DNA from: an uncultured Clostridia bacterium
Lineage (GTDB): Bacteria; Bacillota; Clostridia; Christensenellales; UBA1242
NCBI GenBank assembly: GCA_947366545.1
Contig: CANBAL010000002.1
Span: forward strand, 14,889 to 78,888
Reading direction: 5' to 3'
DNA: 64,000 nt
The translations under genes were made by a program, and so were the position numbers. The notes below the pieces were generated by a model. The model had not been told where the DNA came from and did no database searches. It worked only from the letters and a program-made list of their open reading frames with translations. This document shows, in pieces, positions 16,618 through 51,074 of the stretch. Each line of letters opens with the position of its first letter. Positions within the stretch are counted from its first letter, which is position 1.

Positions 16618-17043
16618 TTACATTTCATCGTCTTCTTTGATCTTGATTAATGCCGCGCCTTCTGCCATTGCGCAAATTCCAACGAGTGGCATACATAAAC
16701 CTATGTTTAAACCCTGTGCTGTTTTATACTCCTTACCTAAACTTGACTTTTTTAAATTTTCAACTACAAATTCTTGTGAGTTAAGTTTATCTTGTAATTG
16801 TGCATATTCCTTTGACAATGCAATTGTTTCCTGTGCATCTTTGCTTTCTGACATGGCTTGTTCAAGTTTTTTAAGTTGAGCATTGTGTTTAGCACAAGCG
16901 TCTGCATATTCTTGTGACCTCATGTATTTTATTATCGCTGTCTGCATTTGATCTTTAGTTATTTGGCAGCCTGCGATAGAAGCAGATAAACCAACAAACG
17001 CTGTAATGTATGTACAGATACGAATGACCTTGCGTTTCTTCAT
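16618..17043 (-). CDS. hypothetical lipoprotein/membrane protein with coiled-coil middle, C-terminal TM and acidic ...EDDEM tail
   Basis: 141 aa. Signal peptide with lipobox SIAGC, helical Q/K/E-rich core, TM GLCMPLVGICAMAEGAALI. RBS AAAGGAG. Same architecture as 23092-23595. Confidence 0.65.
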   Translation of the reverse strand: MKKRKVIRICTYITAFVGLSASIAGCQITKDQMQTAIIKYMRSQEYADACAKHNAQLKKLEQAMSESKDAQETIALSKEYAQLQDKLNSQEFVVENLKKSSLGKEYKTAQGLNIGLCMPLVGICAMAEGAALIKIKEDDEM

Positions 17044-17069: not shown

Positions 17070-17099
17070 ATTATACCATAGTGGGGGGGGGATTGTCAA
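17070..17099 (-). promoter_or_regulatory. consensus sigma-A promoter with C9 tract in the spacer (candidate phase-variable)
   Basis: Minus strand: TTGACA (17099-17094), 18-nt spacer ATCCCCCCCCCACTATGG, TATAAT (17075-17070) with TGn extension. C9 run = 17083-17091. Confidence 0.75.
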
Positions 17100-17117: not shown

Positions 17118-17188
17118 TAGATTTCTCCGTTGCGCCCTTATGGGCTTCGGTCGAAATGACAAAAGGATGGGCGGTCGAAATGACAAAA
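17118..17188 (+). repeat. REP-like intergenic hairpin repeat, copy a
   Basis: TAGATTTCTCCG-[GCCC-ttat-GGGC]-TTCGGTCGAAATGACAAAAG, plus a second GGTCGAAATGACAAAAG. Related copies at 44548-44590 and 47399-47466. Confidence 0.85.
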
Positions 17189-18344: not shown

Positions 18345-20735
18345 ATGAAGGTTACATATAATTGGCTGAAAGATTTTGTTGACATTGACATTTCGGCAGA
18401 AGAACTTGCAAAGCGTTTGACCGCTGCGGGTATGGAAGTGGAAGAACTTATTTATCAAAATGAGCATCTTCACCATGTTGTAGTGGGCAAGATATTAAAA
18501 ATAGAAAGACATCCGCAAGCCGACAAACTGGTTGTTTGTCAGGTGGACATTGGGAGCGAGGTGACACAAATTGTTACTGCCGCAACAAATGTGTTTGAGG
18601 GTGCTATGGTGCCGGTAAGTCTTGCGGGGGCAGACTTATGCAACGGCATAAAAATTGAAAAATCAAAACTGCGTGGCGTGGACTCCTTTGGTATGTTCTG
18701 CAGCGGTGAGGAACTGGGAATTGATGACAATTATTTTGAAGGCGCAAGTGTGAACGGCATTTTGATATTGCCTGAAGATTTTGTTGCGGGTACACCTATT
18801 GACAAAGCACTGAAACTTGACGACATTATTTTTGATATTGGCGTAACACCTAACAGGGCGGACTGCATGAGTGTGATTGGTATTGCTCGTGAAGTATGTG
18901 CTGTACTGGGAAAGAGTATGAAAGAGGTTGACCTTTCATATAAGGCACTTGGCGATGATGTAAACAACCATGTAAAAGTGAATGTGCTTACTGACAACTG
19001 CCATAGATACATGGCGGGTTACATTCGTGATGTGAAAATTGAGCGTTCGCCTATCTGGATGAGATGCAGGCTTAACGCTGTTGGTATCAAACCTATCAAC
19101 ACCCTTGTTGACATAACCAACTATGTGCTTGTGGAAATGGGACAACCTTTGCATGCTTTTGACGGAGGGCTTATTACAAACAATCACATTATCGTTCGTC
19201 AGGCGGAAGAGGGAGAAAGGCTCGAATGTTTAAATCACGCTACATACAACCTTGACAATGATGTTATGGTGATTGCTGACGAGGAAAAGCCTATGGTTAT
19301 TGCAGGGGTTATTGGGGGAATGAACTCTTGCATTAATGACAGCACTTTCTGCTGTGTACTTGAATCAGCGGTGTTTGACCTTAAGAGCATTAGGCTTACA
19401 AGCAAAAGATTTGGTGTGCGTACCGATTCTTCTGCGCGCTATGAAAAAGGTGTGAATGTTGCCTCTGCTGAAATGGGAATCAAAAGAGCGTTACATCTTA
19501 TAGACAAGTTGGCTTGCGGAACCATTTCAAAAGGACTTATCGATCTTAAGCAAAAAGAAAATGAGGTGAGAAACATTGAAGGCTCTATAAAAGAGATAAA
19601 CAGCATTTTAGGAATAAATGTTCCACCAGAAATCATGAAGAGAATTTTAAACAGCCTTTGCATTAAAACTGAGATAAAAGGAGACAAACTTTTATGCGAA
19701 GTGCCTCCTTACCGAGAAGATATTGAAAATAACAACGACCTTGCAGAGGAAATTATTAGATTTTATGGCTACGACAAGTATGATGAACTTGGGCTTGAAC
19801 TTTTTGCGAACGCGAGTGTGACAGAAGGACGACAGATGCCTAGGGTAGCACTTGAAAACAAAATGAAGGATGTGCTTATAAATAACGGCTTTTATGAGAC
19901 TCTTAATTTCTCACTTTGTGCGCCTAACTTATGTGAGAAACTGTTGATTGATGACCTTAGGAAAGAACATATAACCATTGCAAACCCTATTTCTGAGGAC
20001 ATTTCTTGTCTGCGTACAAGCATGGCAGACGCACTTCTTATCGACCTTGAAACAAACCTTAAAGTAGGGAATAAAGATATTCGTCTTTTTGAAATTGGAA
20101 GAACTTATCATCCAAAAGAACTGCCTCTTCGTCACCTTCCTATTGAGAAAAGTAGACTTTCTTTCCTTGTAAACGAGAAGGGATTTGATTTCTTCAATTT
20201 GAAAGGGCTTGTTGAAAACCTACTTATTCTGACTTCGGTTGAGTGGAAACTGGTGCGTTCAAGCGAGCCTTATCTTCATCCAAACATAAGTGCGGACATC
20301 ATGTGCGGGAAAAATAAGATTGGCTATTTTGGCAAAATTCATCCGCTCGTTGCTAAGAATTATGACATTGACCCTAATACCTATTATGGTGAACTTGACA
20401 TGGACTATCTTGCCGCTTTCCAAGAAAAACACTACAGTGTTAGGGCTGTATCAAAATTCCCTATTGTGGAGCGCGACATCGCTGTGGTTGTAGATGAAAA
20501 CAAAACTTGTGAAGAGATTTTATCTGCGGTTAAATCTGCTTGCGGGGGACTTTACTACTCTAGTGAGTTATTCGACATTTACAGAAGTGAAAGCCTTGGA
20601 CAAGGCAAGAAAAGTATGGCAATAAAAATTAAACTTTCAAGTGGTGACCATACCCTTAAAGATGAAGAAGTGAATGGCGTGATAAACAAAGTGCTAAAAG
20701 CCTTACAATTTAGATTTGGTGCGAGCCTAAGATGA
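18345..20735 (+). CDS. pheT: phenylalanine--tRNA ligase beta subunit
   Basis: 796 aa. MKVTYNWLKDFV start, tRNA-binding OB domain, B3/4, B5 and FDX-ACB domains. Confidence 0.97.
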   Translation: MKVTYNWLKDFVDIDISAEELAKRLTAAGMEVEELIYQNEHLHHVVVGKILKIERHPQADKLVVCQVDIGSEVTQIVTAATNVFEGAMVPVSLAGADLCNGIKIEKSKLRGVDSFGMFCSGEELGIDDNYFEGASVNGILILPEDFVAGTPIDKALKLDDIIFDIGVTPNRADCMSVIGIAREVCAVLGKSMKEVDLSYKALGDDVNNHVKVNVLTDNCHRYMAGYIRDVKIERSPIWMRCRLNAVGIKPINTLVDITNYVLVEMGQPLHAFDGGLITNNHIIVRQAEEGERLECLNHATYNLDNDVMVIADEEKPMVIAGVIGGMNSCINDSTFCCVLESAVFDLKSIRLTSKRFGVRTDSSARYEKGVNVASAEMGIKRALHLIDKLACGTISKGLIDLKQKENEVRNIEGSIKEINSILGINVPPEIMKRILNSLCIKTEIKGDKLLCEVPPYREDIENNNDLAEEIIRFYGYDKYDELGLELFANASVTEGRQMPRVALENKMKDVLINNGFYETLNFSLCAPNLCEKLLIDDLRKEHITIANPISEDISCLRTSMADALLIDLETNLKVGNKDIRLFEIGRTYHPKELPLRHLPIEKSRLSFLVNEKGFDFFNLKGLVENLLILTSVEWKLVRSSEPYLHPNISADIMCGKNKIGYFGKIHPLVAKNYDIDPNTYYGELDMDYLAAFQEKHYSVRAVSKFPIVERDIAVVVDENKTCEEILSAVKSACGGLYYSSELFDIYRSESLGQGKKSMAIKIKLSSGDHTLKDEEVNGVINKVLKALQFRFGASLR

Positions 20736-21898
20736 TTTACTTAGATAACGCAGCCACTACGCCTATGTTTGAAGGGGCAGCAGAGCAGTACAAGAAATAT
20801 GCGTGTGAACTTTTCTACAATCCTTCCGCAGGGTACGGCGAGGCAATAAAAATTTCACGGCTTTTGCAGGAGGCGAGAAAGACTATTTTGGATAGGCTTG
20901 GTGCCGCAAAGGGGGACATTATTTTCACGAGTGGAGCTACTGAAAGCAATAATCTTGCGATTCAGGGTAGCGAGCGCAGTGGCAAGTGGGAATATGTTTT
21001 TTCTGCAGGAGAGCATCCAAGTGTTTTTAATGTGGCAAAAAGTTTGCAACAAAAAGGCTATGTCGTGCATTTTGTTCCACTTGGAAAAGACGGACAAATT
21101 GATTATGGTGCGTTAGAAAAAGTCTTGAATGAAAAGACAAGGCTTATTTCTGTCATACATGTGAGTAATGAAACGGGGGCTATAAACGATATAGCCCGAA
21201 TTTCTTTGCTCCGTGACAGGCTTTCGCCAAAAGCACTTCTTCATGTTGACGGTGTGCAGGCTTTTTGCAAAATACCTTTTAGTGTGGACAGGCTTGGCGT
21301 TGACCTTTATACCATTTCCTCCCACAAGTTTCATGGACCAAAAGGAGTGGGCGCGTTATATGTGAGAAACAAAGGCGCCCACAAGTTTCATGGACCAAAA
21401 GGAGTGGGCGCGTTATATGTGAGAAACAAAGGCGGGCTTAAAAACATCGTTTTTGGCGGTGGACAGGAGGGCGGTTTACGCTCGGGTACCGAAAATGTGA
21501 GTGGCATTATGGCTATGATATGGGCGGTTACACATATTAACACTCAAGAAAATTTTGAAAAAGTGACAAAGTTAAAAAACGCATTTTTAGAGGTGTTAAA
21601 ATCTGAGGCTGGAATTGGCGTAATAGATGTGGGAAGTCCTTACATTCTCTCTTTAAGTTTTAAAGGCGTGAAGGGGGAAACCTTGATGCGAAGGGTGGAG
21701 AATGAGGTGATTGTTGGAATAGGTAGTGCATGCTCGACAAGATATGCTGGCAACCGGATATTAGAACAACTTATCGCTCGTGACGAGGTGATTTCAAGCG
21801 TGAGAGTGAGTTTTAATGCTTACCTTACCTTAGACGAAGTTAAAAATGCGGCTATGATAATTAAAAATGCCTATAAGAATTTATTGGAGAAGGTGTAA
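20732..21898 (+). CDS. cysteine desulfurase (NifS/IscS-like) with internal 19-aa duplication
   Basis: MIYLDNAATTP..., GATESNN, SSHKFHGPKGVGALYV PLP-lysine motif (present twice), GSACS active-site loop. Overlaps the pheT stop and is coupled to thiI. Confidence 0.9.
   Translation: MIYLDNAATTPMFEGAAEQYKKYACELFYNPSAGYGEAIKISRLLQEARKTILDRLGAAKGDIIFTSGATESNNLAIQGSERSGKWEYVFSAGEHPSVFNVAKSLQQKGYVVHFVPLGKDGQIDYGALEKVLNEKTRLISVIHVSNETGAINDIARISLLRDRLSPKALLHVDGVQAFCKIPFSVDRLGVDLYTISSHKFHGPKGVGALYVRNKGAHKFHGPKGVGALYVRNKGGLKNIVFGGGQEGGLRSGTENVSGIMAMIWAVTHINTQENFEKVTKLKNAFLEVLKSEAGIGVIDVGSPYILSLSFKGVKGETLMRRVENEVIVGIGSACSTRYAGNRILEQLIARDEVISSVRVSFNAYLTLDEVKNAAMIIKNAYKNLLEKV
21321..21434 (+). repeat. perfect 57-bp x2 in-frame tandem duplication
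   Basis: 21321-21377 is identical to 21378-21434. It encodes HKFHGPKGVGALYVRNKG(A/G) twice. Confidence 0.95.
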
Positions 21899-23049: not shown

Positions 23050-23062
23050 TATTTACGAAAAT

Positions 23063-23093
23063 AAAAAGGGGACTGTTTAAGTCCTCTTTTTTT
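23063..23093. terminator. bidirectional intrinsic terminator
   Basis: AGGGGACT-gttta-AGTCCTCT flanked by an A-run and a T-run. Lies between convergent thiI and the 167-aa gene. Confidence 0.7.
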
Positions 23094-23595
23094 ACATTTC
23101 GTCTTCTTCATCAACATGTGTGCCGCTTATTTCTTTCGATTTCTTTTTCCTTTTAAAATAATCTGTAGAATAAAGTTTGTATTCCAAGTAGGCTGCCCCA
23201 AAAGATAATGATAGTGGAGCTATGCCACATAGAGAAATTGCAAGGTCTCTATTTCGGAGCTTTATGTTTTCAGGCTTATCTGCAAACATACATTCGGCTA
23301 TATAACCTCTATCTTCTTTTAGTTTCTCTAGATATTGGATTTGCTTTTCAGTAAGATGAGTAATTTTTTTGTTTAAAATGTTGTTAAGTGAAGCTTCGAG
23401 CAAATCAATTTGATCTTGTATTTCTGCTTTGTGTACTGTAAATTCTTCGCTTGCTTTGTATGCGTCCATAGCATTGTCAAATTCTACCATGCCGTAGCTT
23501 ATCATAAAAATTCCACTACCTAAAAGTAGTACAGGGGTGGCAGCATAAGCAAGGGCGGTGCCGAGTTTTTTTAGTGCGGTATTGTTGTTTTTCAT
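23092..23595 (-). CDS. hypothetical membrane protein (N-TM, coiled-coil, C-TM, acidic ...EEDEM tail)
   Basis: 167 aa. TM LAYAATPVLLLGSGIFMISYG, helical core, TM LCGIAPLSLSFGAAYL. RBS AAGGAG. Architecture and promoter match 16618-17043. Confidence 0.65.
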   Translation of the reverse strand: MKNNNTALKKLGTALAYAATPVLLLGSGIFMISYGMVEFDNAMDAYKASEEFTVHKAEIQDQIDLLEASLNNILNKKITHLTEKQIQYLEKLKEDRGYIAECMFADKPENIKLRNRDLAISLCGIAPLSLSFGAAYLEYKLYSTDYFKRKKKSKEISGTHVDEEDEM

Positions 23596-23616
23596 ATTCT
23601 TCTCCTTGATGCTTTT

Positions 23617-23647
23617 ATTATAACATAGCGGGGGGGGGAGTTGTCAA
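23617..23647 (-). promoter_or_regulatory. consensus sigma-A promoter with C9 tract in the spacer (candidate phase-variable)
   Basis: Minus strand: TTGACA (23647-23642), 19-nt spacer ACTCCCCCCCCCGCTATGT, TATAAT (23622-23617) with TGn extension. C9 run = 23630-23638. Confidence 0.75.
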
Positions 23648-23743
23648 TACCCAATTTTGAAATATTAATAAAATGTATACCCACTCATAATTATAAATTT
23701 CATTTTTATAAATTTGCATAAAACTCAATTTATATAAAAAATA

Positions 23744-23761
23744 TGTGAATAAATATGCAAA
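23744..23761 (+). promoter_or_regulatory. ARG box-like operator 1 upstream of argR
   Basis: TGTGAATAAATATGCAAA matches about 14/18 of my recollection of the Bacillus AhrC consensus CATGAATAAAAATKCAAK. Abuts the -35. Confidence 0.5.
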
Positions 23762-23767
23762 AATCAC

Positions 23768-23796
23768 TTGCATAATTATAAAAAACGATGTATAAT
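23768..23796 (+). promoter_or_regulatory. probable argR promoter
   Basis: TTGCAT (23768-23773), 17-nt spacer, TATAAT (23791-23796). Confidence 0.5.
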
Positions 23797-23807
23797 AATG
23801 AAAAATG

Positions 23808-23825
23808 CATGAATAATCATAAATT
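23808..23825 (+). promoter_or_regulatory. ARG box-like operator 2
   Basis: CATGAATAATCATAAATT (about 12/18 to the consensus), downstream of the -10. Further TGCATAA half-sites nearby. Confidence 0.4.
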
Positions 23826-23888
23826 TATAATTATGCATAATGGCTACAACCCCCGAAAATAAAGAGATGTAGCGATTTAGGAGGAAAA

Positions 23889-35965: not shown

Positions 35966-36571
35966 TTATTTTTTTCTAGGATTTTGAATTACATTAACAT
36001 GAAATTTTGGTACGCACTGCTTAGTATCTACATATTGTAGTAATTCTTCAAACTTTGTATACCCTGTTACTCGATTAAAATGTCCTGCTGTTTTAGATAT
36101 AATAGTTTTTGCATCTATTAATTTTGCAAATTCTATAAGTTTATCATATTTAACATAAGGGTCATTTTCGGATAAATAACAGACCCGTTCTTTGCACAAA
36201 TCTTTAAACTTTTCTGCTTGATTTGTGTACATGGTGCAGTTGACATTGTCGTAATCTTCGTCAAGTCCGAGCATTTGGTTAAAACCCGAGATCATTATTG
36301 CTTTCCCTATTTTTATATTATTTCTAATACAATATTTGACTAAGAAAATACAAGCGATTGAGTGACAGAAAAATACACTTTCTTCATTAATAAATCTTTT
36401 CACAGAGTTAAGCACCATTTCCCAATTTTGATAGGTTTGTCGGTTTTCTCCCACTGGGAAGTCTAAATTATAGCAACTCCCCCCCCCGCATTTAATTTGA
36501 TTTTCAAGCCATGGAAACCAATGGTCTTGACTGGAACCAAAGCTACCATGAATAATAAAATAATTTTTCAT
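35966..36571 (-). CDS. alpha/beta serine hydrolase (YdeN/RBBP9-like)
   Basis: FIIHGSFGSSQDHWFPWL, nucleophile elbow CHSIAC, C-terminal GHFN. Contains an in-frame G9 tract (codons 29-31). Confidence 0.72.
   Translation of the reverse strand: MKNYFIIHGSFGSSQDHWFPWLENQIKCGGGSCYNLDFPVGENRQTYQNWEMVLNSVKRFINEESVFFCHSIACIFLVKYCIRNNIKIGKAIMISGFNQMLGLDEDYDNVNCTMYTNQAEKFKDLCKERVCYLSENDPYVKYDKLIEFAKLIDAKTIISKTAGHFNRVTGYTKFEELLQYVDTKQCVPKFHVNVIQNPRKK
36479..36487 (-). repeat. G9 homopolymer (sense strand) inside the hydrolase CDS
   Basis: tgc ggg ggg ggg agt encodes C-GGG-S. The flanks CAACT-C9-GC on the plus strand are identical to the promoter tract at 23630-23638. Confidence 0.95.
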
Positions 36572-41773: not shown

Positions 41774-42352
41774 TTAACTATTTTCTTGATTTAATTTAGG
41801 GTATGTAAACTTGCAGGTTTTTGAATAGATTTTATATGGGGCTTTTGCCCGATAAATTACCCGCTCTTCTTTTGGTATTTGAATTAATTTCTTTGCTCTA
41901 TCCATATGGAAAATTCCTTCCAAATGGTCGAGTTCGTGTGAAAGTACAGTGCATACAAATCCCTCAAAATTAGTTATAAAATCCCCCCCCCGCATATCTT
42001 GATATTTAATCCTCATGGCATAAGGGCGTTCTACAAGTCCAAAATTTAACATCCCGCTAAAACATGCTTCCCAGAATTCAGTTTTTCCGCATTGTGAAAT
42101 TATCTCAGGATTTATAAGTACTAGCCAATCTTTTTCTGGGTTTGGAGAACAATCGCTTGATGTGGATTTTATTACAACAATTCGTTTTGGAATGCCAAGT
42201 TGTATAGATGCCATTGCAAAACAACCATTATGTGTGCGACAATACTCTTTTACAATTTCTACATCTTGTTCAAGATTTTTATCTGGGAAATTCACCTTTG
42301 CTGACTTCTGCCGTAAGAATGCCTCATTTTCTGCGATTGTAATTGCTTCCAT
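41774..42352 (-). CDS. def: peptide deformylase (divergent paralog-like)
   Basis: IQLGIPKR, EACFS (EGCLS-like), HELDHLEG metal site. Contains an in-frame G9 tract. Confidence 0.82.
   Translation of the reverse strand: MEAITIAENEAFLRQKSAKVNFPDKNLEQDVEIVKEYCRTHNGCFAMASIQLGIPKRIVVIKSTSSDCSPNPEKDWLVLINPEIISQCGKTEFWEACFSGMLNFGLVERPYAMRIKYQDMRGGDFITNFEGFVCTVLSHELDHLEGIFHMDRAKKLIQIPKEERVIYRAKAPYKIYSKTCKFTYPKLNQENS
41983..41991 (-). repeat. G9 homopolymer (sense strand) inside def
   Basis: atg cgg ggg ggg gat encodes M-R-G-G-D, upstream of the HELDH motif. Confidence 0.95.
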
Positions 42353-42367: not shown

Positions 42368-42934
42368 TTATTTGGTTAATGCTTTAAAATCAAATGTGAT
42401 TGGTTTTCCATTGGGTATTTCAAATGATAGATAATTGCCATCATTGGGAATGCCTTTAAAGTAACTCATTAAAATACAACCTACTCCACCATGAGATACA
42501 ATTAGTATATCATCATTTGGATGTTGTTTTAATTCATCAAGGAAGTTAAAAACTCTCTTTTCAACCTCCTTTATACTTTCAGCAAGTTTAAATTTTTGTT
42601 TAGAATTTATATTCCAAAACCCTAGAAAATCGAATTCACTTCGTGTCAAACCTTCAAATTCACCAAAATCTCTTTCTATAATTCTTTCATCAATTATTAT
42701 AGGGTTATTTCCTTTATAAATTATGTCGCAAGTCTGTCTTGCCCGCAATAAAGGGCTGCAAAAAACTTTTTTAAACTTTTTTCCTTTAATAGATTCTGCG
42801 GTTTGTTTTGCTTGCTCTATTCCTGTATTGTTTAATGGAAGGTCAACTCTTCCTTGACATTTAGGGTCTTTAATCCCCCCCCCGTTTCTATGTTCATTCC
42901 AGTCGGTTGAGCCATGTCTTACAAAATAGATCAT
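42368..42934 (-). CDS. histidine phosphatase family protein (phosphoglycerate mutase-like)
   Basis: [17 protein letters not shown] motif, VSHGG. Contains an in-frame G9 tract at codons 18-20. Confidence 0.87.
42875..42883 (-). repeat. G9 homopolymer (sense strand) inside the histidine phosphatase CDS
   Basis: aac ggg ggg ggg att encodes N-GGG-I, within an apparent insertion between the WN and QG family motifs. Confidence 0.95.
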
Positions 42935-44547: not shown

Positions 44548-44590
44548 TTAGATTTCTCCGCGACGCCTTCGGCTTTGGTCGAAATGACAT
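44548..44590 (+). repeat. REP-like intergenic hairpin repeat, copy b
   Basis: TTAGATTTCTCCG-[GCC-ttcg-GGC]-TTTGGTCGAAATGACA between ruvC and ruvA. Confidence 0.85.
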
Positions 44591-47398: not shown

Positions 47399-47466
47399 TT
47401 AGATTTCTCCGCTCCGCTATCGCTCTGGTCGAAATGACAAAGTAGAGGCCGGTCGAAATGACAAAG
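47399..47466 (+). repeat. REP-like intergenic hairpin repeat, copy c
   Basis: TTAGATTTCTCCG-N14-CTGGTCGAAATGACAAAG plus a second GGTCGAAATGACAAAG. Lies between rplT and the methyltransferase gene. Confidence 0.85.
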
Positions 47467-49391: not shown

Positions 49392-51074
49392 TTATTCTGT
49401 TTCATCAATTGCTTGAAAATAAGTTAATTTTTCTTGAAAAGAAGACCTATACGGAGTGAAAAGTTTGAAGTAATATTCTGCAGATTTTTCTCCATAAATT
49501 GAAGAGTAATATTCAATTTCATTCTGCCTTGATAGATATGGAACTTTTATGGAGTTTTCTTTTAATTCTGTAAGCAAAACTTCGATATCTCCATCCTCTG
49601 AATATTCTTCTAGAATTTCGCATAATTGATACAAGTAAGTTTGATTCATATTAAAGTTTTTAATTGACTCAAGGCATTGTTTTGCTTTGGAAATTATGGT
49701 GTCTTTAAGGTTTTCCGTCATTTCGACTGAGTAATTTACAATAATGACATAGGCATATTGTAGTTTATTTTCATTTATATATTTTATTGCAAGTGCTTCG
49801 GGATTTGTTGGTTTTAAATAGACAGGAAGGTTTACAAGAGAGGAAAGCGAGATGTCGCCATTTTCCAATATCTCATCAAGATTTATACGCTCCGCCATCT
49901 TCTTATACCCTTCCTTTTGATAGTAATGTATCATGGAAGAAAGATAAGGTATGCAAGGATTTCCATCTTCTATAAATCTTGCCAAAAGGTTATGACTGAA
50001 ATTGTCATCGTCTTTATTTCGTGCACAGGAGAAATATAATAGTGAAATATATAACTGGTTTTTTGTTTCTATATAATCTATATATTTTTCATAGCGCATA
50101 TTTAGGAGTTCTTTCTTGGCCGGTAACTTACTTTCCTTTTCGTTTGTTTTCTTTTCATTAAAAATAGATAAAGAAAGTGTTCTAAATCCTTTATCAGTTT
50201 TATTAAATCTGTGGGTGTTTGCTTTGTCAAGAATTAGTCCCATTTGTGATAGTTTTGAAATGTCAATTTCTTGGCACAATTCCTTCATTGATTCTTCTAC
50301 CATTTCCACATAGCATTTATCTGGTTCTCCTAATTGCATATCTTCGTAGTATAATTCTTTTATAGACTCAATTATTTTTCGTTTATGAGAAGAACCAATT
50401 GCAGCATAAATTGCATCTAGTTGATCTAATATATGAAAGGTAAATACAAGTCCACCTTTTCGTGCATCACTTTCATGTGGATATATTTCATATAATAATT
50501 CGCTGATTAATTCTTTATCAAATTTACTACAATTTTTATCCCCATTTTTGTAATGAGAAAGATAGGAAAAGAAATTATAAGATTCATTGCCATTAAATAG
50601 CGCATTTCTATGTAAAAATGTGAACTGCGTGTTTCTCTTTGACTGAATATCATGGGTAAGTTCGTGACCTAAGGTGTCTATCATTGCGCAAAGACTTAAA
50701 AGGCGGAATTCTAGGCTTTCTTTGTCGTTTAAATTCTCTAATACTTCAGTGATATGCTTATTGGAAATATTGATTTCACCCTGTCCAGCATTGCCTACTA
50801 AAAATTCAGGAAGGTTTTTAAAATATACTTTAGGAGCGGAATAATTGCCTAGGTCAATAAAAGGGTTGTCTTCAATTAACGCATGTAAAAATGAGGTTAG
50901 TTCTTTTCTAGTAATATTTTTATTCTCAATGATTTTATCAATGAATTTTAACATTTTTATTTCTTTTAAGGCTTGATTGGCTTTCTCTTTAGATAAAACC
51001 AAAACCTCATTTCTTAGAATGCGGTTGATGGTACTTTTAAAATATTTCTTTTGCATATTGCATGGGATTGTCAT
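49392..51074 (-). CDS. hypothetical large protein with zincin HExxH motif
   Basis: 560 aa from ATG 51074 (RBS AGGAG). DTLGHELTHDIQ, plus a downstream YPHESDA as a possible third ligand. No TM or signal peptide. Ends ...AIDETE. Confidence 0.62.
   Translation of the reverse strand: MTIPCNMQKKYFKSTINRILRNEVLVLSKEKANQALKEIKMLKFIDKIIENKNITRKELTSFLHALIEDNPFIDLGNYSAPKVYFKNLPEFLVGNAGQGEINISNKHITEVLENLNDKESLEFRLLSLCAMIDTLGHELTHDIQSKRNTQFTFLHRNALFNGNESYNFFSYLSHYKNGDKNCSKFDKELISELLYEIYPHESDARKGGLVFTFHILDQLDAIYAAIGSSHKRKIIESIKELYYEDMQLGEPDKCYVEMVEESMKELCQEIDISKLSQMGLILDKANTHRFNKTDKGFRTLSLSIFNEKKTNEKESKLPAKKELLNMRYEKYIDYIETKNQLYISLLYFSCARNKDDDNFSHNLLARFIEDGNPCIPYLSSMIHYYQKEGYKKMAERINLDEILENGDISLSSLVNLPVYLKPTNPEALAIKYINENKLQYAYVIIVNYSVEMTENLKDTIISKAKQCLESIKNFNMNQTYLYQLCEILEEYSEDGDIEVLLTELKENSIKVPYLSRQNEIEYYSSIYGEKSAEYYFKLFTPYRSSFQEKLTYFQAIDETE

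Follow-up and report, generated by a model that had tools for sequence, protein, structure and literature searches.

Slippage at homopolymers is a textbook mechanism of variation in Neisseria, Haemophilus, Bordetella, Mycoplasma and Campylobacter. The vlp genes of Mycoplasma hyorhinis carry a poly-A tract within the promoter spacer and encode lipoproteins with size-variable repeat regions, and in the fim2 and fim3 promoters of Bordetella pertussis, which have no good -35 element, a C-stretch spaces the site of the activator BvgA from the -10 element. In Neisseria meningitidis, the porA promoter holds a poly-G tract between -35 and -10, where 11G, 10G and 9G correspond to a 1x, 2.2x and 13x drop in expression (PMC3639595), and the opc promoter, in the passage of PMC5084427 that cites Sarkari 1994, contains poly-cytidine. 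Cutibacterium-type precedent comes from C. acnes HPT_37, in which C5 versus C7 between -35 and -10 is accompanied by a 2-fold expression difference (PMC4746626). The poly-G/C tracts of C. jejuni have a modal length of nine, which has been ascribed to the mutational pattern, G8 mostly gaining and G11 mostly losing bases (PMC3401435). Phase variation in gut Firmicutes and Clostridia has so far been ascribed mainly to invertible promoters or elements, and our literature search found homopolymer-spacer promoter switches reported for neither Clostridia nor gut Firmicutes. Here, we describe a clostridial promoter in which, with a probability of about 0.6 on sequence and comparative grounds, a slipped-strand C tract would tune transcription of an envelope-protein gene via the -35/-10 spacing.

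The window, by which we mean the whole 64-kb stretch of DNA analysed, has 37% GC and a Clostridia-like gene content comprising pheST, a NifS-like desulfurase gene, thiI, argR, recN and a gene for a SpoIVB-type peptidase. The cassette that we call locus 2 (23617-23647, minus strand) lies between convergent thiI and divergent argR. Direct reading of the letters gives a -35 hexamer TTGACA (23642-23647), a spacer that counts base by base to 19 nt (ACT + C9 + GCTATGT, 23623-23641), and an extended -10 element TGtTATAAT (23617-23625, with TG at 23625-23624 and TATAAT at 23622-23617). The C9 homopolymer (G9 on the plus strand), the presumed slippage site, occupies 23630-23638 within the spacer. Downstream on the same strand, a ribosome-binding site AAGGAG (23602-23607) stands 6 nt 5' of the ATG at 23595, which opens a 167-aa ORF for a small predicted membrane protein (23092-23595), and the monocistronic unit is ended by a bidirectional hairpin terminator (23063-23091) common to the convergent thiI.

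The locus 2 promoter matches the consensus at 12 of 12 positions and adds the TG, and the cassette type is present twice in the window. The second copy, locus 1 (17070-17099, minus strand), reads TTGACA, AT-C9-ACTATGG (18 nt), TATAAT, with its tract at 17083-17091, and precedes a 141-aa ORF (16618-17043, minus strand) whose product has a lipobox-like IAGC and an EDDEM tail and is remotely homologous to the 167-aa protein. In the window, near-consensus promoters, counted at no more than one mismatch in 12, peak at a spacer of 17 nt (10/23), and locus 2 is the sole 19-nt spacer among these sites. The organism thus appears to keep canonical spacing, from which 19 nt is off-optimum. An earlier reading of this DNA from its letters, here called the sequence-only reading, had placed TTGACA, the spacer, TGtTATAAT, AAGGAG and the ATG at 23595 exactly where we find them; its description of the 19-nt spacer as suboptimal agrees with the 17-nt peak of the other near-consensus promoters, and it was right that locus 1 is the same cassette and locus 2 one base longer (18 versus 19 nt). 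Judged by its hexamers, the locus 2 promoter is a predicted sigma-A type promoter with a supra-optimal 19-nt spacer. The homopolymer-in-spacer layout, taken as a tract of at least about 7-8 nt between -35 and -10, is present at locus 2 and conserved in relatives.

Other readings of the promoter were set aside. An alternative sigma factor was rejected because the hexamers fit sigma-A alone, and an alternative -35 inside the tract was rejected because the sister species would offer TTGTAC, a 3/6 match with a 15-nt spacer. An activator-spaced C-stretch promoter of the Bordetella fim type fails on the perfect and conserved TTGACA, and no repeated activator-like site was found adjoining the locus 2 -35. 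At locus 2, Rfam detected no RNA element, its one match in the window being a tRNA. In a scan of genome contigs for GTATTGACAA-N8-20-CTATGKTATAATAA, all matches were strong Clostridia promoters of a generic kind that lacked C tracts, so the cassette flanks are plain consensus promoter sequence and do not mark a mobile element.

Runs of this length are far from expectation in the window. Matches to C8 or longer number 10 against 0.24 expected, the cassette pattern has 2 matches against 0.00 expected, and the length distribution of G/C homopolymers is bimodal, with 124 runs of length 4, 29 of length 5, none of lengths 6-8, and 5 of length 9; together these figures exclude a chance origin of the C9 tract. 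Such an excess of long G/C homopolymers with a gap at intermediate lengths is Campylobacter-like, as seen in this one 64-kb window. In addition, independent assemblies (Logan, ENA, NCBI) have a C8-C10 tract at the same promoter position in orthologs and paralogs. It is therefore extremely improbable that the run arose by chance in the window alone or through an error of sequencing or assembly: homopolymers are in general difficult to sequence, and nothing more speaks for this explanation, against which stand the recurrence of the tract in independent assemblies of relatives and its frequency far above the chance expectation.

Three further 9-nt G/C runs lie in frame, in Gly-rich codons, inside minus-strand genes of the window. 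They are located at 36479-36487 in a Ser_hydrolase (PF06821) gene (35966-36571), at 41983-41991 in a peptide deformylase gene (41774-42352), and at 42875-42883 in a His_Phos_1 phosphatase gene (42368-42934). All three G9-bearing enzymes match their Pfam models over the full length, which would make G9 the ON state. A deformylase gene is a surprising place for a slippery tract.

We retrieved the corresponding site in relatives via ArgR homologs. The thiI-argR site (window 23050-23888; contigs L015-L033 and L071-L090) emerges as a hot spot of presence/absence and gene swapping, which may have no insert, one to three small genes of the two-transmembrane (two-TM) family, or an unrelated 217-aa gene. 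In the sister species (ArgR 89% identical), a 157-aa paralog stands behind GGTATTGAC[T/C]-TGTA-Cn-GATATG[A/T]-TATAAT, and the alternative content is the unrelated 217-aa gene, whose promoter has no tract. Another lineage has the site empty of any insert. In a third lineage (L071, L072), the ORF has been deleted between GAAGAAGATG-like repeats, leaving a scar of promoter, RBS, ATGTGA and the retained terminator, and in these ORF-deletion alleles the tract is reduced to C4 and the spacer to 14-15 nt. In a fourth lineage, one to three family genes in tandem follow TTGAC[T/A]-TA-C9-GCTT[G/A]TG[G/C]-TATAAT (19 nt) or, alternatively, a GC-rich insertion has replaced the -35 and left just CCC of the tract. 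An ortholog of locus 2 is on a 933-bp Logan contig (L014), which encodes the sole detectable homolog of the 167-aa protein (P0002, 45% identity) behind TTGACA-ATA-C9-ACCATGC-TATAAT with a 19-nt spacer, and its upstream DNA is nearly identical to that of the window.

Across this set, the anatomy of the cassette is conserved. The -35 is TTGACA, TTGACT or TTGACC in every orthologous or paralogous cassette, TGnTATAAT is kept in all of them, and the distance from the 3' edge of the tract to TATAAT is 7 nt in most and 8 nt in two paralogous cassettes (L084 and L089). C9 is also the length in the paralogous cassettes of L084, L089 and L091. The 167-aa, 141-aa and ArgR proteins of the window had no exact match among recorded proteins. 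Scanning metagenome and viral sequences for TATTGAC-N2-6-C6+-N3-12-ATGNTATAAT yielded mostly unrelated C6 promoters and no orthologs. Consensus promoters with C9-C10 in spacers of 15-21 nt do occur sporadically in unrelated taxa of 24-56% GC (L037, L043, L050, L053, L055, L060), where the genes downstream are unrelated and some encode membrane proteins; the spacer C-tract motif may thus be more widespread than the literature implies.

The region upstream of argR (23650-23880) is AT-rich and contains repeated TATGCA...ATAATTAT-type motifs resembling ARG boxes. These motifs are present in all lineages, also in those without the small gene, and end ~45 nt upstream of the -35, which makes an influence of ArgR on the cassette conceivable. 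Elsewhere in the window, the cysteine desulfurase gene (20732-21898) contains a perfect 57-bp tandem duplication (21321-21434; 2.0 copies, 100% match) that is in frame and doubles the SSHKFHGPKG (PLP-lysine) segment, giving a protein of 388 aa versus 369-370 aa in relatives; the segment may have been duplicated recently or be a product of misassembly.

The ortholog of locus 1, on contig L091, has AAT-C9-GCCATGC and a spacer of 19 nt. The same contig holds a second C9 in a promoter-like site (2120-2137), with TTGACA and a 17-nt spacer to a weak TATTTT, and the gene behind it (2200-2898), adjoining the locus 1 ortholog, encodes a 232-aa lipoprotein (lipobox LLTAC). The position of this site 5' of a lipoprotein gene suggests that C9 promoters serve other envelope proteins too. 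We also observe a dispersed short repeat, TGTCATTTCGACCG, in 6 copies versus 0.1 expected (window 17148-17185, 44576-44589, 47426-47463 and 49716-49729), two of them immediately upstream of the locus 1 promoter. A related insert of ~190 bp (L014, 115-300) lies just upstream of the locus 2-type promoter. This repeat may be a REP/MITE-like element targeting these promoter regions.

The length of the tract differs between strains. In 15 independent assemblies of two alleles of the sister-species cassette, 13 have C9, one has C8 (SRR29855682) and one has C10 (SRR22050060), where the C8 and C10 calls are the consensus of short-read metagenome contigs and may include low-coverage homopolymer miscalls. 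Over 4.3-4.5 kb, the C8 contig (L015) has 0 substitutions relative to C9 contigs (L021/L022), and the tract is the one indel column between them; likewise, a C9 contig (L017) and the C10 contig (L020) differ by 0 substitutions in 4925 bp and by one indel column, again the tract. These length-polymorphic pairs are thus otherwise identical strains, and they come from the same studies. The allele type of locus 2 itself (23630-23638) is represented by two sequences, the window and L014, both C9, and one contig (L098) starts inside the tract. Counting all promoter tracts at the consensus level, exactly C9 is found in 20/22 observations. The sister-species ortholog of the cassette occurs with C8, C9 and C10, so the tract is not invariant across strains, which was the comparison on which the sequence-only reading had let its slippage claim depend. 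That claim stands in that tract length varies in nature, but slippage appears less free-running than it implied, given the hold at nine.

This constancy could also be explained by a C9 that is a functional element of fixed length, either a site bound by a protein or a rigid, A-like stretch of G.C pairs setting the geometry of the promoter, with C8 and C10 being assembly errors. The occurrence of exactly 9 in nearly all observations, across species and loci, speaks for such an element. However, the flanks of the tract differ among cassettes and the spacer ranges from 17 to 20 nt, so that no common geometry or extended motif exists, and identical G9 runs are found within unrelated coding genes. 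Furthermore, each deviant length is the sole difference in >4 kb, and the only regulator nearby is ArgR, whose AT-rich boxes sit upstream of the cassette. We therefore regard a fixed-length element as quite improbable.

The proposed tuning starts from a unit that would comprise a sigma-A promoter, a leader of ~15 nt, a gene for a two-TM protein and a terminator, seated in the variable thiI-argR site. Slipped-strand mispairing at replication would add or remove one C in the spacer, whose length would be set by the tract (19 nt for C9, 18 for C8, and 17 for C7), and the altered spacing would change the fit of the sigma-A holoenzyme to both hexamers. At the resting length of C9 the spacer would be too long, and the presumably low expression would be borne mainly by the extended -10; contraction of the tract would then raise expression and expansion lower it. 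The outcome would be a heritable, reversible and graded heterogeneity, a form of volume control, of a fast-evolving envelope protein, and locus 1 would act likewise, independently, on a paralog. Three evolutionary observations favour tuning: the tract always stands 7-8 nt from the -10, a consensus -35 is retained, and the C run has decayed where the gene or the -35 is lost.

The state in which these promoters rest is harder to reconcile with tuning. Depending on the flanks, C9 gives spacers of 17, 18, 19 or 20 nt, all but one above the optimum, and every clear cassette rests at a supra-optimal 18-20 nt; we count the oddness of every member resting in a poor spacer state against tuning. Since C9 is held across spacers of 17-20 nt and in coding genes, the resting length appears intrinsic to the tract and independent of promoter geometry. 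A TGn extended -10 can render a -35 partly dispensable in sigma-70 and sigma-A promoters, and with the TGn conserved in these cassettes, any switch may be blunted. Taken together with the tight hold at nine, the conserved TGn argues against a crisp ON/OFF switch.

The same observations lend themselves to an account in which the tract is mutable yet functionally neutral. The lineage would have a mutational process, such as mismatch repair that is weak or missing and an equilibrium length of nine, that makes and keeps G/C9 runs at any site that tolerates them, and the extended -10 promoter would fire whatever the spacer, so that changes in the tract would scarcely affect expression. The recurrence of length 9 in three coding genes as well as in promoters whose spacers span 17-20 nt, and the retention of TGnTATAAT in all cassettes, fit this account, as does the explanation of the modal nine in C. 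jejuni by mutational pattern and not by selection for switching (PMC3401435). A neutral tract does not, however, account for its constant position 7-8 nt from the -10 in diverged cassettes, nor for a perfect or near-perfect -35, which would be pointless if unused, and the reduction to C4 or C3 occurs precisely where the gene or the -35 has been lost. We consider neutrality unlikely on balance, and tuning by spacer length remains our preferred reading.

The product of the locus 2 gene belongs to an undescribed family. By hydropathy, the 167-aa protein has a K-rich N terminus, a TM segment at ~10-39, a helical middle, a second TM segment at ~116-138 and an acidic tail, EEDEM. It aligns collinearly with the 141-aa protein and with the 144-207-aa proteins of relatives, which share the layout of K-rich N terminus, TM segment, helical region with a conserved 'Y..S..Y...C' motif, second TM segment and charged tail, and hhalign relates the 167-aa type to the 141/157-aa type with 79% probability (E 1.6e-5). 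An exhaustive HMMER scan of 1.84 billion representatives recovered 20 family members at E<=1e-3, and a profile word-index search with the family returned its own members alone. Pfam, NCBIfam, PHROGs and PADLOC gave no family match for the 167-aa protein, only coiled-coil noise. The AlphaFold model of this protein is all-helical and of moderate confidence (pLDDT 66), and a Foldseek search of the PDB found no match below E 0.2; the best one, to the TM-helical-TM protein Wzc, is not significant. We conclude that this is a tiny, lineage-restricted family of predicted two-transmembrane helical proteins, and the most economical reading of the models is a membrane-anchored, externally looped, fast-diverging protein that would be exposed at the surface. 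Another kind of slip affects the gene for the 157-aa protein in the SRR298556xx strain of the sister species, where a change from (TA)2 to (TA)3 (L021/L015/L022 versus L018/L019) truncates the protein to 122 aa with loss of the second TM segment; the promoter there is still C9 or C8.

A wider interpretation would place these tracts in a contingency system of the Campylobacter style in an uncultured Clostridia lineage of the gut type, built on G/C9 tracts and made up of portable TTGACA-C9-TGnTATAAT cassettes together with in-frame G9 runs in enzyme genes, including that for peptide deformylase. In its promoter arm, the cassettes would sit at recombination hot spots and drive, in a vlp-like manner, a hypervariable, lineage-specific two-TM family together with at least one lipoprotein. 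We put this forward tentatively, as a possibility we would rather doubt than expect; if true, commensal Clostridia would have their first described homopolymer phasome.

Confirmation of tuning would mean that commensal Clostridia also hedge their bets by slippage for envelope proteins, and that an undescribed family of small membrane proteins is a likely target of pressure from phage or the host, with phage or host immunity as the presumed selective agent. The cassette also provides a signature for metagenome mining, TTGACA-N2-4-C8-10-N7-8-TATAAT. At such sites, heterogeneity of the homopolymer interrupts metagenome assemblies or leads to miscalls in them, as illustrated by the contig that begins within the tract (L098).

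The kind of mechanism proposed here is already known and has an actinobacterial precedent, and what is new is probably its occurrence in Clostridia. The closest likeness is to porA and opc of Neisseria, with a G/C homopolymer of ~9-13 nt in a sigma-70-type spacer. There, one-base slippage grades the expression of an envelope protein, as we propose for the present cassette. Our cassette differs in belonging to a spore-forming Clostridia lineage of Gram-positive type, in its extended -10, and in its product, a small two-TM protein from an undescribed family. In addition, the resting spacer is too long (18-20 nt), whereas the common length in porA gives an optimal spacer. With C. acnes HPT_37 the cassette shares a poly-C spacer in a Gram-positive commensal and a length that differs among strains; that tract, however, is short, clade-fixed and not hypermutable, and it precedes a metabolic gene in a high-GC actinobacterium. 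The fim2 and fim3 promoters likewise have poly-C upstream of the -10, where its length sets the expression of surface-protein genes, but the perfect -35 and the lack of an evident activator site set our cassette apart.

C. jejuni resembles our organism in its AT-rich genome, excess of G/C tracts, mode of nine and scarcity of intermediate lengths, with tracts both intragenic and intergenic (PMC3401435, PMC4965091). Most C. jejuni tracts are intragenic ON/OFF switches in surface-glycan genes, whereas here 2/5 tracts are in promoter spacers and 3/5 in enzyme genes, and the tracts are locally denser, at 5 per 64 kb as compared with 29 per genome in C. jejuni. Finally, the vlp system is similar in having a small, fast-diverging family of membrane-anchored proteins with their own homopolymer promoters, clustered at variable loci. 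The vlp genes switch independently, a feature that we propose, from sequence, for the C9 cassettes as well; the tract is poly-C here and poly-A in vlp, and we found no sequence relationship between the two.
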